Assembly: GCA_902554315.1 (NCBI GenBank) | Contig: CACDOF010000001.1 | Coordinates: 19,894-83,893 of the forward strand | Reading direction: 5' to 3' | Length of the DNA stretch: 64,000 bases | From: an uncultured Pelagibacteraceae bacterium | GTDB taxonomy: Bacteria; Pseudomonadota; Alphaproteobacteria; Pelagibacterales; Pelagibacteraceae | Shown: in pieces, positions 1-38,338 of the stretch | How positions within the stretch are numbered: position 1 is the stretch's first letter | Layout: each line of letters begins with the position of its first letter | Translations under genes and position numbers: made by a program | Notes under the pieces: model-generated | What the model saw: only the letters and a program-made list of their open reading frames with translations | The model's database searches: none | Told to the model about the DNA's origin: nothing

Positions 1-602
1 TTTTTAATTAAATTAGGCTTGGCACTAACTGAATTTTTTTTTTCATAAGAAATTTTATTCTCTTCAATTTTAAATTTTGACTTTTCTGCTAATATATTTC
101 TGGGAAGATTAATAGATACAGGTCCTTTTCTTGGAGACATCGCTAATTTGAAGGCTTCACTAAAAGTTTCAGGTATTCTTTTTACATTTTTTACTAACCA
201 TGTTTTTTTTGTAATTGGTTTGAATAATGATTGTTGGTCAAGCCCTTGAAAAGCATCCTCCATTTTATCATTCGTAGAATATGAACCTGCAATTGATACA
301 ACTGGTGAAAAAGCTGCTTTAGCTTGAGCAATTCCTGTTACAAGATTAGTTGCTCCAGGACCATTTTGTCCTGCAAGAAATACTCCTGGCCCATTAGATG
401 CTCTAGCATACCCATCTGCCATATGAGTTCCTGTTCTTTCATCTCGAACTCCAATAAATTTTATTTTTTTTTCATGGTAAAGGGCATCAAACATTTCCAT
501 TGTTGCTGAACCAATTAATCCAAAAACATGTTTAATTTTTTCTTTTTTTAATGATTTAACCGCAGCTTGACCCCCAGATAAGATCTTTTTTGATTTGATC
601 AC
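1..602 (-). CDS. ThDP-dependent enzyme, acetolactate synthase/sulfoacetaldehyde acetyltransferase (Xsc)-like; partial, runs off the left edge
   Basis: Not in the ORF track. Manual translation from GTG at 602 (GTGA overlap with the upstream stop) gives MIKSKKILSGGQAAVKSLKKEKIKHVFGLIGSATMEMFDAL...GVRDERTGTHMADGYARASNGPG...GQNGPGATN. FGxIGSA and QNGPG are Xsc-like. Confidence 0.8.
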   Translation of the reverse strand, partial: MIKSKKILSGGQAAVKSLKKEKIKHVFGLIGSATMEMFDALYHEKKIKFIGVRDERTGTHMADGYARASNGPGVFLAGQNGPGATNLVTGIAQAKAAFSPVVSIAGSYSTNDKMEDAFQGLDQQSLFKPITKKTWLVKNVKRIPETFSEAFKLAMSPRKGPVSINLPRNILAEKSKFKIEENKISYEKKNSVSAKPNLIK

Positions 603-1768
603 GAAACTTTTTTAACTTCAGTATTTACTTTGTCTTTAAATTTAGGGATTACTTTTTCTGTGAATAATTTTATACTTTTCATGCAATCATCATGTTTAAC
701 ACCTGGAAAATTAGACCAAACTTGAAGATTTTGAAGATTAAGTTCTGATTTTAATTCATGAATTTTATCAATTACATATTCTGGTGTCCCAAAAAGCATA
801 TTTCTTTTATGTAAAAAATCATAATTTAATAAATCTAATTTACCTTTTGTTTCTGGCAACTCTTCTTCTGGATCCATATGATTCCCAAGACCTCGCCAGT
901 GACAAACCCATCTCATATAATTTACCATATGTTCGCCAGCTTTTTCTTTAGCCTCTTCCATTGTATCTGCAACAAACATGTCTCTTACTAAAGTTACCCC
1001 TTCTCCTAAGTCAACATTTCTTTTCTCTTTTTCAGATCTAGCATTTTTATAAGCTTCAAATTTAATTTTTAATGCTTTTACCGTAGGTATCCACATTATA
1101 ACGTTTATTCCATTTTGAGCAGCCCACTCGATAGATCTTATACCATCCACAACTTGGTGAATTGGAGGATGAGGTGATTGATAGGGTTTAGGTACAACGC
1201 TAATTTTTTTTATAGTGTTATCTTCCATATTTATAAATTCTTCACTTGGTGGACTCATATCATGCTGCCAAACATGGTTTGGATGAGGATAATTATAAAA
1301 TTCTCCTTGATGGCTAAAGAATTTTTCTGTCCACGCTTTTTTAAGTATTTCTAGAGTTTCTGAGAATAGTCTAAAATTTTTTGCTTGATCTTTAAGGTCG
1401 GCTTCTACATTTAAATTTATTGCTTCTCTGCCATAAATTCCTCTAGCAACTCCTACTTCTACTCTACCTTTTGAAAGTTGATCTAAAGTAGCTATATCTT
1501 CAGCTAATCTAATTGGATTATGAAATGTAATAACATTTGCAGCTTGTCCAATTCTAATTTTTTTAGTTCTAGCAGCAGCATCAGCGCCTAACATCAATGG
1601 ATTAGTACATGACTCCATTCCTTCATGATTAAAATGATGCTCGGTAAACCAAATAGAATTCCAATTATTTTGATCACAATATTCAGTTATTTCTTTCGTT
1701 TCATCTAACAATTGATGATAGGGCTTGTGAGTCCAATTTGTAGTATTACAAAAATAACCAAACTTCAT
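599..1768 (-). CDS. Luciferase-like (LLM class) flavin-dependent monooxygenase
   Basis: MKFGYF start, WFTEHHF, PIRLAEDIATLDQLSKGRVEVGVARG, PKPYQSPHPP. Start reassigned to ATG 1768, which follows the SD AAAGGAG. Confidence 0.9.
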   Translation of the reverse strand: MKFGYFCNTTNWTHKPYHQLLDETKEITEYCDQNNWNSIWFTEHHFNHEGMESCTNPLMLGADAAARTKKIRIGQAANVITFHNPIRLAEDIATLDQLSKGRVEVGVARGIYGREAINLNVEADLKDQAKNFRLFSETLEILKKAWTEKFFSHQGEFYNYPHPNHVWQHDMSPPSEEFINMEDNTIKKISVVPKPYQSPHPPIHQVVDGIRSIEWAAQNGINVIMWIPTVKALKIKFEAYKNARSEKEKRNVDLGEGVTLVRDMFVADTMEEAKEKAGEHMVNYMRWVCHWRGLGNHMDPEEELPETKGKLDLLNYDFLHKRNMLFGTPEYVIDKIHELKSELNLQNLQVWSNFPGVKHDDCMKSIKLFTEKVIPKFKDKVNTEVKKVS

Positions 1769-1771
1769 AAA

Positions 1772-1848
1772 GTCTCCTTTAAAATCAAATTTAAAGACGA
1801 CCGATCCCACTTTCGTATATGAAATAACGACGAGTTATGTATCGCTTT
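1772..1848 (-). promoter_or_regulatory. Candidate structured 5' leader RNA (riboswitch-like) upstream of the LLM gene
   Basis: GC-enriched intergenic segment. Hairpin GUCGUCUUUAAA-UUUGAU-UUUAAAGGAGAC covers the SD. A competing 5' strand AAAGCGAU and inner hairpins AUAAC-UCGUC-GUUAU and UAC-GAAA-GUG lie upstream. Confidence 0.5.
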
Positions 1849-1868
1849 ATTTAACAACTTTATTATTA

Positions 1869-2834
1869 CTACCTTTGATATTCAACAAATTTCTTTAAGG
1901 AACTATTTAAAAATTTTTCATAAATTTGACCTTTATTTAAAGTTTTTCTATTCATTAAATATGAGGGGTGCATTTTAAAATCGAAAGATGGCTCAAAAAA
2001 AAATGGAATAGACATTCTTTTAGATCTGTTCCACAAAACACGATGATTTGTTGCTTTAAATTTTCCTTTAGTTAAGTATTCCAAAGCTCTTCCTGTATTG
2101 ACTACAAAAGCCTTTTTATTAAATGGCATATCGTACCACTTTTTATTTTTACGGTTTTGAACTTGTAATCCACCTTTTTTATCCTGGTATAGAACAGTAA
2201 ATATTCCACTATCAACATGTGTTTCACAACCCAGTGCAACACCATCTTGTCTCGAAATTTCCACAGGCCTTCTTTGATTTGGATAGTAATTAAATCTCAA
2301 TGTGCTCAATGTTTTCAGTCTAGAAAAAGCCTGATTTGAAATAGACGGATCTTTTTTATAGTAAATGATTATACTTTTAAAAAGTATTTCGCTTAGGTTA
2401 AAAATATCATCAAAATAATTATTTATTTTTTTAATTGAATGTTCTTTAAAACATTTTTGAAGATTTAAATATTCAATGTATTGGTTTCGAATATTATTTG
2501 AATATTTCTTTGATACTTTTAGGTCTCCTAAATCTAAACCTTCTTTTCCATTCACATCATTAGGAAAATATCCTCTATAAACATTCTTATTTTTTCTATT
2601 CCATTTTTTTGGAGATAATTTTCTTTTATATTCATCAGTCATATTGAAGAATTTATTTCCTACAGTGCATATATTTTTAATATCTTTTGTTTTTAACCCA
2701 TGCCCTACAACTTGAAAAAACCCTATCTCTATACAAGCTTTTTTAATTTCTTGAATAGTTTTTCTAGACTCTTTTGAAATAAATTTTCCATCTAATAGTG
2801 ATGATATATTTATTGTTGGTATATATGATTTCAT
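1869..2834 (-). CDS. Fe(II)/2-oxoglutarate dioxygenase, isopenicillin N synthase-like family
   Basis: IPTINIS...ACIEIGFFQVVGHG N-terminus; HVDSG...HRV...RMS facial triad and 2OG-binding motif. Confidence 0.9.
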   Translation of the reverse strand: MKSYIPTINISSLLDGKFISKESRKTIQEIKKACIEIGFFQVVGHGLKTKDIKNICTVGNKFFNMTDEYKRKLSPKKWNRKNKNVYRGYFPNDVNGKEGLDLGDLKVSKKYSNNIRNQYIEYLNLQKCFKEHSIKKINNYFDDIFNLSEILFKSIIIYYKKDPSISNQAFSRLKTLSTLRFNYYPNQRRPVEISRQDGVALGCETHVDSGIFTVLYQDKKGGLQVQNRKNKKWYDMPFNKKAFVVNTGRALEYLTKGKFKATNHRVLWNRSKRMSIPFFFEPSFDFKMHPSYLMNRKTLNKGQIYEKFLNSSLKKFVEYQR

Positions 2835-9739: not shown

Positions 9740-10525
9740 TTAATCCATTCTAAAAGTATTTCCATCAACACTAATAATTTGTCCCGAAACTCTTGAAGCA
9801 TCATCTGAAATTAAATATCCACATGTTTTTGCAATATCCTCTTCATAAATCCAGGTATTCATCGATGTCATTGATATATATTCTTTTTCTACAAATTTTT
9901 TTGGAACCTTTAAAAACTTTGCTTTAGCGCTTATTACTCTATTCATTCTATCACCTTTAATAGTGCCAGGACAGATTGCATTAACTCGTATTTTAAATTT
10001 TCCTAATTCCATAGCTAAAGTCTTTGTGACTCCAACCACAGCCCATTTACTAGCTGCATAAGGAGACCTTAATGGGAAACCATGTATTCCTGCCGTAGAT
10101 GATAAATTAATTATTGATCCACCTTTATTTTTTTTAAGCATAGGAATTGCAAGTTTTGAAAAATAAAAATGACTTATTACATTTATTTTAAGAGTTTGCT
10201 CCCAATCTTTTGACTTAAGTTTTTCCAAAGTTCCAGTAGGACCGGCAATACCAACATTGTTAATAAGTGCATCAACTTTTTTTGTTTTTTTTAAAATTTT
10301 TGTAAAAAAATTGGAAACTTCTTTTTCATGAGAAGCATCACATTCATAAGAAAAAAGTTTCTTATTACTCAAAGGATGCTTTTTTGATTTATTAATAAAT
10401 TTTTTGTTTACATCACAAATAAATACAGTTGCACCGTTTTTTAGACACTCTTTTGTAGTTGTCCATCCAATACCAGAGGCCCCTGCTGAAATTATAATTT
10501 TTTTATTTTTTAGTTTTAAACTCAC
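9740..10525 (-). CDS. Short-chain dehydrogenase/reductase
   Basis: AGASGIG, NNVGIAGP, YAASK, RVNAICPG; GTG start. Confidence 0.9.
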   Translation of the reverse strand: MSLKLKNKKIIISAGASGIGWTTTKECLKNGATVFICDVNKKFINKSKKHPLSNKKLFSYECDASHEKEVSNFFTKILKKTKKVDALINNVGIAGPTGTLEKLKSKDWEQTLKINVISHFYFSKLAIPMLKKNKGGSIINLSSTAGIHGFPLRSPYAASKWAVVGVTKTLAMELGKFKIRVNAICPGTIKGDRMNRVISAKAKFLKVPKKFVEKEYISMTSMNTWIYEEDIAKTCGYLISDDASRVSGQIISVDGNTFRMD

Positions 10526-10530
10526 TATTT

Positions 10531-31092: not shown

Positions 31093-31094
31093 AT

Positions 31095-32018
31095 TTGATT
31101 TTATCTAAACCAAATCATATTAAAATTTATGGTCATCGGGGAGCTAGAGGCGATCTTCCTGAGAATACTTTAGAAAGTTTTAAATATCTTTTTGAAAATA
31201 ATATAAGTGCTTTTGAAACGGATATTTTAATCTCTGAGGATTTAGTTCCAGTCATAACCCATGACTTTCGTTTAGATATTAGCATGACAAAAGATGCTAA
31301 TGGTGACTGGATAAATAATGAAAATATTAAAATTTATGATTTAACATATGATGAAATTCAAAATTATGATGTTGGTTCTATAAATAAATTATCAAAGTAT
31401 GGTAGGAGATTTTTAAATCAAAAAAACCTTCCCGATCAAAGAATACCAAAATTAAGCGAAATTTTTGATTTAATAAATTCAATAAATATAAAAGATTTAA
31501 TTTTAAATTTGGAAGTAAAGTCAACTCCAGTTGAGGATGATTTGACGCCACCCCCAGATGAAATGGTTAAAATTATTATGAGTGATATTGAAAAATCTAA
31601 TCTAACTAAAAATATTCTAGTATCATCATTTGACTGGAGAATATTAAAAGAATTCAAAATACAAGCTCCAGAATTGACAAGGGGTTATTTATCTTACCAA
31701 CAAAACTCGGGAGTTAAAATTTCAAACACGATATATAAAAATTCTCCCTGGATGGATTTAGCTCTTTCATTTAATGAATTTGAATTACCACATCTAATTA
31801 AAGATCTAGGGGGAAAAGCATGGTGTCCTTTTTATAAAGATATTCAAAAAAAAGATATTGAGGAGGCACACAATCAAGGCTTAGTAGTAAATGTTTGGAC
31901 TGTAAACAAAGAAAACGACATGATGAGGATGATTGAATATGGAGTTGATGGAATAATTACAGACTATCCTTTAAAGTTAAAAGAGCTCTGTGAGAGAAAA
32001 AATATAAATTGGTTCTAG
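31095..32018 (+). CDS. ugpQ: Glycerophosphodiester phosphodiesterase
   Basis: GHRGARGDLPENT, ETD, THD, NLEVK, WTVN, GVDGIITDYP. Confidence 0.9.
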   Translation: MILSKPNHIKIYGHRGARGDLPENTLESFKYLFENNISAFETDILISEDLVPVITHDFRLDISMTKDANGDWINNENIKIYDLTYDEIQNYDVGSINKLSKYGRRFLNQKNLPDQRIPKLSEIFDLINSINIKDLILNLEVKSTPVEDDLTPPPDEMVKIIMSDIEKSNLTKNILVSSFDWRILKEFKIQAPELTRGYLSYQQNSGVKISNTIYKNSPWMDLALSFNEFELPHLIKDLGGKAWCPFYKDIQKKDIEEAHNQGLVVNVWTVNKENDMMRMIEYGVDGIITDYPLKLKELCERKNINWF

Positions 32019-38238: not shown

Positions 38239-38274
38239 CTTCGATAATTATAATAGTTTTATTAAAATCAGCTG

Positions 38275-38303
38275 TTGACTCTCTATTCCTATGTTGCTGT
38301 AAT
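38275..38303 (+). promoter_or_regulatory. Candidate internal sigma70 promoter for the SBP gene
   Basis: TTGACT-17 nt-TGTAAT upstream of the SD GGAGG. Confidence 0.45.
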
Positions 38304-38338
38304 CCCGTTTTTATAAAAAACGTTTAAACGGAGGATAA

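Follow-up and report, generated by a model that had tools for sequence, protein, structure and literature searches.

Organization of the locus

The window analysed here, a 64,000-nt stretch of contig CACDOF010000001.1 (assembly GCA_902554315.1), comes from an AT-rich genome of the Pelagibacter type, about 1 Mb in size and with a GC content of 0.31. Its minus strand carries a run of genes for a TauD-like dioxygenase, a GMC oxidoreductase, an EamA transporter and a 2OG-Fe(II) oxygenase, the last of which stops at 1869, just before a 100-nt spacer that separates it from the gene of a luciferase-like monooxygenase (LLM) (Table 1). The sole full-length solved relative of this LLM is 3,6-diketocamphane monooxygenase. 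Beyond the window, the operon headed by the LLM gene continues with genes for a DUF1185 protein (PF06684), an alpha/beta hydrolase, an ALDH, a second EamA protein and a binding protein, and its core comprises LLM, DUF1185, alpha/beta hydrolase and ALDH. The ThDP enzyme that stands between LLM and DUF1185 here was present in only part of the genomes that bear the leader motif described below, and in many of those without it LLM, DUF1185, hydrolase and ALDH lie directly in a row.

Table 1 Features of the spacer and the adjoining genes, in window coordinates.
Feature	Position	Strand	Details
Luciferase-like monooxygenase (LLM)	599..1768	-	389 aa; first gene of the operon, putatively regulated by the leader; start ATG 1768-1766
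ALS/Xsc-like ThDP enzyme (its start)	3..602	-	Second operon gene
Possible sigma-70-type promoter	1857..1885	-	TTGAAT 1885-1880, 17-nt spacer, TAAAGT 1862-1857; read by eye, 8/12
P1 5' strand	1841..1848	-	AAAGCGAU; pairs with 1801-1793
Junction J1/2	1835..1840	-	ACAUAA; invariant in 19/19 protein-anchored orthologue leaders and in an alignment of relatives
P2, overall	1806..1834	-	P2a, AAG bulge, P2b and variable loop
P2a	1834-1831 with 1809-1806	-	CUCG with UGGG; consensus CUCR/YGGG, invariant
AAG bulge	1812-1810	-	Invariant
P2b	1830-1827 with 1816-1813	-	UCGU with ACGA; covaries
P2b variable loop	1826-1817	-	
Junction J2/1	1802..1805	-	AUCG; AUC invariant, fourth base G or A (AUCR)
Switching strand	1793..1801	-	GUCGUCUUU; P1 3' strand (U1797 bulged) and 5' arm of the SD hairpin
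SD-sequestering hairpin	1772..1801	-	Arms 1801-1790 / 1783-1772; loop 1789-1784; SD AAGGAG 1779-1774

An earlier note on this DNA, made from the sequence alone, had quoted the mRNA strand of the spacer, and this quotation matches the DNA at its coordinates. The same note had called the spacer conspicuously GC-rich for the window. With a GC content of 0.29, the spacer in fact lies below the window as a whole (0.309), but it does stand out from the other 20 spacers (median 0.22), and the 56-nt core described below reaches 0.39. Three other spacers also showed relatively high GC (0.27-0.30), at 10142-10530 (389 nt), 31093-31283 and 38239-38338. None of these three had an Rfam match at gathering thresholds, and they may hold unannotated genes or RNAs.

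The open reading frame called for the LLM (599-1810) opens at a GTG at 1810, which is in frame with the LLM and inside the 56-nt core, and automatic annotation could in this way lengthen the protein by 14 codons. This GTG is not conserved, the conserved LLM start being the ATG at 1768. A leader peptide or longer reading frame beginning at GTG 1810 was rejected because the distance from the GTG to the ATG shifts by 1-2 nt among relatives, indicating that this interval is noncoding.

Upstream of the core, the -35 hexamer of the possible promoter in Table 1 overlaps the terminal part of the 2OG-Fe(II) oxygenase gene and lies wholly within it. A promoter scan of window positions 1500-2300 with a threshold of 9/12 matches returned none. 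Relatives carry TTGAAT-17-TAATAT at the same position, and a locus of the second family introduced below (L015) has TTGAAA-17-TATAAT, which matches at 11/12 positions, includes a TG and ends about 9 nt before the first helix of the core (P1). From these hexamers, the leader may have its own transcription start near 1850, 1-3 nt before P1; in the window's genome it may be intercistronic. The translational control proposed below would be compatible with a read-through transcript too.

The leader is conserved and linked to the LLM gene

When 61 related genomes were searched at the protein level for LLM orthologues, 19 loci with upstream DNA were recovered, 14 of them from the same genus (78-94% identity) and 5 from another family (57%). 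The leader was present at all 19 loci, despite differing upstream genes. Conservation and covariation in orthologue leaders had been named beforehand as a check in the earlier note; the first is seen in these 19 leaders and the second in helices P1 and P2b, as detailed below.

Comparison of the two families, whose LLM proteins share 57% amino acid identity, showed that the third codon positions of the LLM gene were 47% identical, while the 21-nt core of the leader (ACAUAACUCR + AAGYGGGAUCN) was 90% identical. The P1 strands were 62% identical between the families, with their complementarity kept. The core pattern matched once in the window and not at all in 100 shuffles, and the motif is single-copy in the window's own genome.

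We then scanned for the pattern using one genome per species and obtained at least 121 matches in at least 120 stretches. Four matches outside SAR11 (in Bifidobacteriaceae, Desulfomonile, Cloacimonetes and one alphaproteobacterial MAG) lacked the flanks and were rejected by the covariance model, and we discarded them as chance. Among the matches listed, 117 were true copies; almost all were from Pelagibacteraceae, with the remainder in a HIMB59-type genome, a 'MarineAlpha5' genome and one genome labelled gammaproteobacterial. Also among the matches listed, 113 of the 117 true copies sit directly before an LLM gene. In 151 sampled genomes of the order, the covariance model detected the motif in 75 and the protein search detected the LLM in 76, these being the same genomes, and the sole LLM-bearing genome without the motif has its LLM cut at a contig end. 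The motif is therefore found in about half of the sampled SAR11 genomes, and it is limited mainly to Pelagibacterales. One copy (L087:7859-7923) is followed by a 100-aa reading frame with an LLM-like start (MKF) and a remainder resembling the ALDH C-terminus, a hybrid that could be a deletion or an assembly join.

In GC-rich Alphaproteobacteria, searches with filters off gave no motif match at LLM homologues (35-45% identity) or at DUF1185 orthologues (49-61% identity). At three such loci (L196, L199 and L202), a promoter-like TTGACAT followed by a GGTATACCA palindrome was seen about 60-100 nt before the DUF1185 gene, an arrangement that looks like a protein operator. The lack of a motif match at these operons, together with this palindrome, would fit an RNA that replaces a protein regulator in streamlined genomes.

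Covariation defines an irregular hairpin domain

The conserved part of the spacer is a 56-nt hairpin-type RNA domain (window 1848-1793, minus strand) with an 8-bp P1 and the elements given in Table 1. The segment between CUCR and AAG, which contains the P2b stems and loop, spans about 10 to about 50 nt among relatives. The fold stability of the spacer alone is unremarkable (z = -1.47), so the case for this structure rests on the relatives.

Across 35 diverse sequences, 87.5% of cells were paired, compared with 33-47% when the partners were slid, and double changes occurred in 9 of the 16 pairs, which 5 of 500 shuffles equalled, although such shuffle controls overstate significance because the sequences are closely related. 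An alignment of 85 distinct sequences made with the covariance model gave 91.7% paired and 10 pairs with double changes, equalled by 0 of 500 shuffles; these values are to be read with the provisos that most of the aligned sequences were gathered by pattern or covariance-model search with the core fixed and that alignments fitted with the model favour it. Changes on both sides were found in 6 of the 8 P1 pairs in the smaller set and 7 of the 8 in the larger, and in 3 of the 4 P2b pairs.

The individual substitutions illustrate these counts. In P1, C-G and G-U pairs are replaced by A-U among relatives, the A-C mismatch is replaced by G-C in L014, and one A-U pair is missing from both strands in L017. 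In P2b, UCG/CGA becomes UCA/UGA in three lineages, and a U-A pair becomes C-G in family 2. These results indicated that P1 and P2b are supported by compensatory changes. P2a, the AAG bulge and the two junctions are all invariant, and the pairing drawn for them is thus a prediction beyond the reach of covariation; the R:Y pair at the top of P2a occurs as G-U, A-U, G-C or A-C, the last in about 10 lineages. U-G is invariant in P2a, and a U-G also closes P1.

Part of this structure had been anticipated. The earlier note had paired AAAGCGAU with GUCG-u-CUUU, the helix that we call P1, which can indeed form and shows compensatory changes in relatives. The interior that it had drawn fared otherwise. 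We rejected its three-way-junction fold, since the AUAAC/GUUAU hairpin was 67% paired with zero compensatory changes in relatives, and its GNRA hairpin UAC-GAAA-GUG fails in the second family. UCGU and ACGA, put forward as a possible tertiary contact, do pair with each other, but as the base of P2b, an ordinary secondary-structure helix. A closing helix between CGAU and AUCG is possible in the OFF state described below; it showed zero compensatory changes and was not retained.

P1 is predicted to compete with a hairpin that masks the SD

The 3' strand of P1 has a second potential partner. Pairing of GUCGUCUUUAAA with UUUAAAGGAGAC at 11 of 12 positions, including one U-G, had been proposed to bury the SD, and we found that this pairing covers the SD as described and forms the core of the minimum-free-energy fold of the window RNA. 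When the 3' part of each leader was folded alone, the SD was paired in 109 of the 114 leaders with a recognisable SD, and its partner was the P1 3' strand in 112 of the 114. Since RNAalifold gave no consensus on a MAFFT alignment of the platforms, owing to misaligned arms, we relied on per-sequence folding with shuffled controls. Among 56 unique platforms, the SD was paired in 91%, compared with 52% when the upstream part was shuffled, and the mean minimum free energy was -9.5 kcal/mol, compared with -4.3 kcal/mol in the shuffles.

The arms of the platform differ in sequence between lineages (UCUUUAAA/UUUAAAGG, UCUUAGAU/AUUUAAGG and CUUUUUAUUG/UAAUAAAAGG), which indicates that the pairing is conserved and the sequence is not. 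L014 and L091 carry GUUUUCUU as their switching strand, which forms a perfect helix with an altered P1 5' strand, AAGAAGAC, and keeps its pairing with AAGGAGG. The change is compatible across all three elements (P1 5' strand, switching strand and SD). The SD lies 14-27 nt downstream of P1 among the leaders. For the window RNA, the unconstrained fold, which contains the SD hairpin, has a free energy of -18.5 kcal/mol, against -12.5 kcal/mol with the aptamer enforced, suggesting that the SD-masked state would be the default. The mutual exclusion of aptamer and SD hairpin, as claimed in the earlier note, extends beyond this genome to nearly all relatives, in which both competing pairings are preserved.

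By itself the SD hairpin reaches about -10.7 kcal/mol, a stable fold that is also the ground state, and a thermometer has been proposed for groES in SAR11. Both points would suit a constitutive leader, in which the SD hairpin acts as an RNA thermometer, a translation damper or a stability element and the upstream hairpin merely aids folding or processing. An upstream domain with invariant junctions and a P1 3' strand that covaries with two partners are, however, features that a thermometer does not require, and we regard a constitutive role as improbable.

The candidate aptamer coincides with an integration site for islands

Some genomes contain 2-4 copies of the motif within 2-19 kb. In L176 (1965-11679), an element of about 9.6 kb lies between a truncated and a complete copy. 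The first copy breaks off after GGGAUCGAUCG; next to it lie a gene for a 535-aa tyrosine integrase (PF00589) and then genes for a DUF5906/VapE-like protein and an ssDNA-binding protein, along with further small genes. The second, complete copy stands before the LLM. The two copies have the blocks AGCGATACATAACTC and CGAAAGTGGGATCGATCG in common, differ in their P2b hairpins and diverge fully after the second block, with the crossover at the end of an 18-nt identical block. Four copies occur within 11 kb in L175 (2482-13411), three of them truncated at the same point and with TPR/radical-SAM genes as cargo between the copies, and the same multi-copy pattern was seen in L069, L084 and L098. The arrangement of these copies indicates that the aptamer is an integration hotspot, used as an attachment site by integrase-bearing islands, with the island supplying a replacement for its 5' part. 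To our knowledge, a riboswitch-like leader would be an unusual integration site. A phage attP counterpart was sought among four pattern matches in viral contigs; these scored only 21-24 bits with the model, the one in L187 lies inside an open reading frame, and they were dismissed as chance.

Insertion of integrase-bearing islands at the motif and the occurrence of duplicated copies raise the alternative that conservation acts on the DNA, the motif being either a transcription-factor operator or an att site that mobile elements maintain for recombination, and the CGAU...AUCG inverted repeat could be read in the same way. Several observations weigh against this. An operator of fixed geometry could not accommodate conserved blocks whose separation ranges from about 10 to about 50 nt; G-U pairs occur on the sense strand only; and the compensatory changes preserve complementarity, not sequence. 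The motif is, moreover, present in all 75 LLM-bearing genomes, most of them with a single copy and without an island, and islands normally exploit sites that are already conserved. Conservation at the DNA level therefore appears highly improbable to us.

The leader matches no Rfam 15 family

A search of the whole window against Rfam 15 gave no match at gathering thresholds, and nothing relevant emerged between 1600 and 2050 at E values up to 10 or, for the motif in five diverse relatives, at E values up to 5, where no match was found at all. Novelty with respect to Rfam had been named beforehand as a check, and no Rfam 15 family matched; the judgement by eye in the earlier note that the leader does not fit SAM-V, glycine, TPP or guanidine and bears a limited resemblance to c-di-GMP-I agrees with the lack of a gathering-threshold match to any of these, and THF-II gave no such match either. 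A tRNA-like element was likewise rejected, as ARAGORN found no tRNA or tmRNA gene in 1500-2200.

Published surveys of SAR11 RNAs were also consulted. No RNA motif linked to a luciferase-like or monooxygenase gene is reported for HTCC1062 (Meyer 2009; PMC2704228), and no motif linked to the LLM is reported in the text or Table S1 for HIMB5 (Stav 2019; PMC6429828). A search of literature full text gave no record joining a riboswitch with a luciferase-like monooxygenase. The leader is absent from Rfam and from these two SAR11 surveys.

A candidate translational ON switch

The conservation, covariation, strict gene linkage and competing pairings described above are direct observations, and we have very little doubt that the leader is a structured cis-regulatory RNA. 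Direct small-molecule binding, the ON direction and the transcription start are what we infer beyond them. That the element is a true metabolite-binding riboswitch, an orphan of the translational ON type and of an undescribed class, seems to us probable. An ON switch had been proposed in the earlier note, and leader conservation, covariation, the lack of an Rfam match and the competing folds support that proposal.

In the mechanism that we favour, the spacer would be the 5' leader of the LLM operon mRNA. The aptamer (1848-1793) would fold as a long irregular hairpin whose P1 closes an asymmetric internal loop, ACAUAA/AUCR, and the binding pocket would be built from about 20 invariant bases that are unpaired or flank the helices. 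In the OFF state, without ligand, the P1 3' strand would pair with the SD region (11/12 positions) and LLM translation would be blocked. Ligand, binding probably during transcription, would stabilise P1, remove the anti-SD strand and so leave the SD free in the ON state. With a masked default, and with an aptamer that would uncover the SD once ligand or the order in which the RNA is transcribed had helped it to form, the leader would follow the logic of an ON switch.

The same architecture could serve another regulator. If the conserved hairpin bound a protein or a trans-acting RNA, stabilisation or blocking of P1 would control access to the SD just as well; structure and platform fit either reading, a small aptamer could equally be a protein site, protein-bound leaders typically display hairpins that are small and irregular and have conserved loops, and the same alternative is given for SAR11 candidates by Stav 2019 (PMC6429828). 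Against this, no candidate RNA-binding protein was found in or beside the operon in any architecture seen, about 20 bases are kept invariant across lineages whose proteins share 57% identity, and ON logic for a catabolic operon fits the sensing of a substrate. We consider a protein or RNA partner unlikely and retain the metabolite-binding riboswitch as the preferred explanation.

Ligand and significance

By analogy of gene content, the operon core of LLM, DUF1185, alpha/beta hydrolase and ALDH can be called trigonelline-pathway-like. TgnF of Acinetobacter baylyi is described as a DUF1185 protein that works with an aldehyde dehydrogenase (PMC7913881), and a 2026 paper describes a homarine operon in SAR11 (homABCD plus a regulator) that is substrate-regulated and whose expression tracks homarine (PMC13236597). 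The trigonelline-like gene content suggests, speculatively, an N-methylpyridine carboxylate as ligand, so that the RNA might sense the compound on which the operon acts, and trigonelline and homarine are possible examples of such a substrate. We offer a trigonelline- or homarine-like ligand as a tentative suggestion that may well prove wrong. The compounds listed for probing in the earlier note (taurine derivatives, betaines, choline sulfate, DMSP and FMN) are not those to which the conserved operon points. The LLM operon is the only gene association of the motif, whereas several regulons would be needed to triangulate the ligand.

A fuller scenario would join these threads, with a new riboswitch class sensing a phytoplankton N-methylpyridinium carboxylate (trigonelline, homarine or a close relative), turning on a ring-cleavage operon in SAR11 and replacing the protein regulator of bacteria with larger genomes, and with its aptamer also used as an island attachment site; taken as a whole, this scenario is doubtful.

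SAR11 is the ocean's most abundant bacterial group and has very few protein regulators, for which reason RNA switches are thought to carry much of its regulation. If validated, the leader would add a ligand to the riboswitch repertoire and would name the inducer, and likely the substrate, of a catabolic operon found in about half of the sampled Pelagibacterales. It would also provide a direct molecular handle on how SAR11 senses one constituent of the organic matter that derives from phytoplankton. Few riboswitches follow ON logic, and an RNA of 56 nt would lend itself to testing and might serve as a sensor.

Comparison with known systems

The adenine (add) riboswitch of Vibrio vulnificus is a translational ON switch, and its purine aptamer is a three-way junction with kissing loops. 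The proposed mechanism of the SAR11 leader resembles it in that a ligand-stabilised P1 competes with a helix masking the SD or start, so that ligand turns translation on; unlike the add aptamer, the SAR11 leader consists of one irregular hairpin and shows no similarity to Rfam families. As an attachment site, the leader can be compared with tRNA and tmRNA genes, which are integration sites (attB) of genomic islands and are rebuilt by the island copy. In both cases the target would be a short conserved stretch of a structured RNA that a copy on the island rebuilds, but here the target is an mRNA leader and the island would restore the 5' part of the element.

Small size and layout bring the leader close to THF-II (the folE motif of Rhizobiales; Chen et al. 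2019, PMC6800512), likewise a small alphaproteobacterial aptamer with P1 and P2, an asymmetric loop that holds the majority of the conserved bases, and translational control via the RBS. The two differ in logic. In THF-II the RBS is located within the P1 3' shoulder, so that the switch is of the OFF type, whereas in the SAR11 leader the P1 3' strand is the anti-SD, which would give an ON switch. The leader also has no Rfam match, precedes LLM instead of folE and belongs to another clade.

Within SAR11, the leader joins the motifs reported in Meyer 2009 (PMC2704228) and the SAR11-restricted riboswitch candidates TIGR03647, fcbT1-I/II and RS05825 (Stav et al. 2019, PMC6429828), with which it shares clade restriction, a relatively GC-rich spacer in an AT-rich genome, predicted translational control and orphan status. 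RS05825, by contrast, consists of three hairpins, lies in another region and precedes a gene of unknown function.

Finally, the operon itself resembles the tgn cluster of A. baylyi ADP1 and the hom operon in combining a flavin-type monooxygenase, a DUF1185 protein, an alpha/beta hydrolase and an ALDH, a likeness of gene content. The tgn and hom systems use the protein regulators TgnR and HomR, whereas in the SAR11 operon an RNA leader would take that place.
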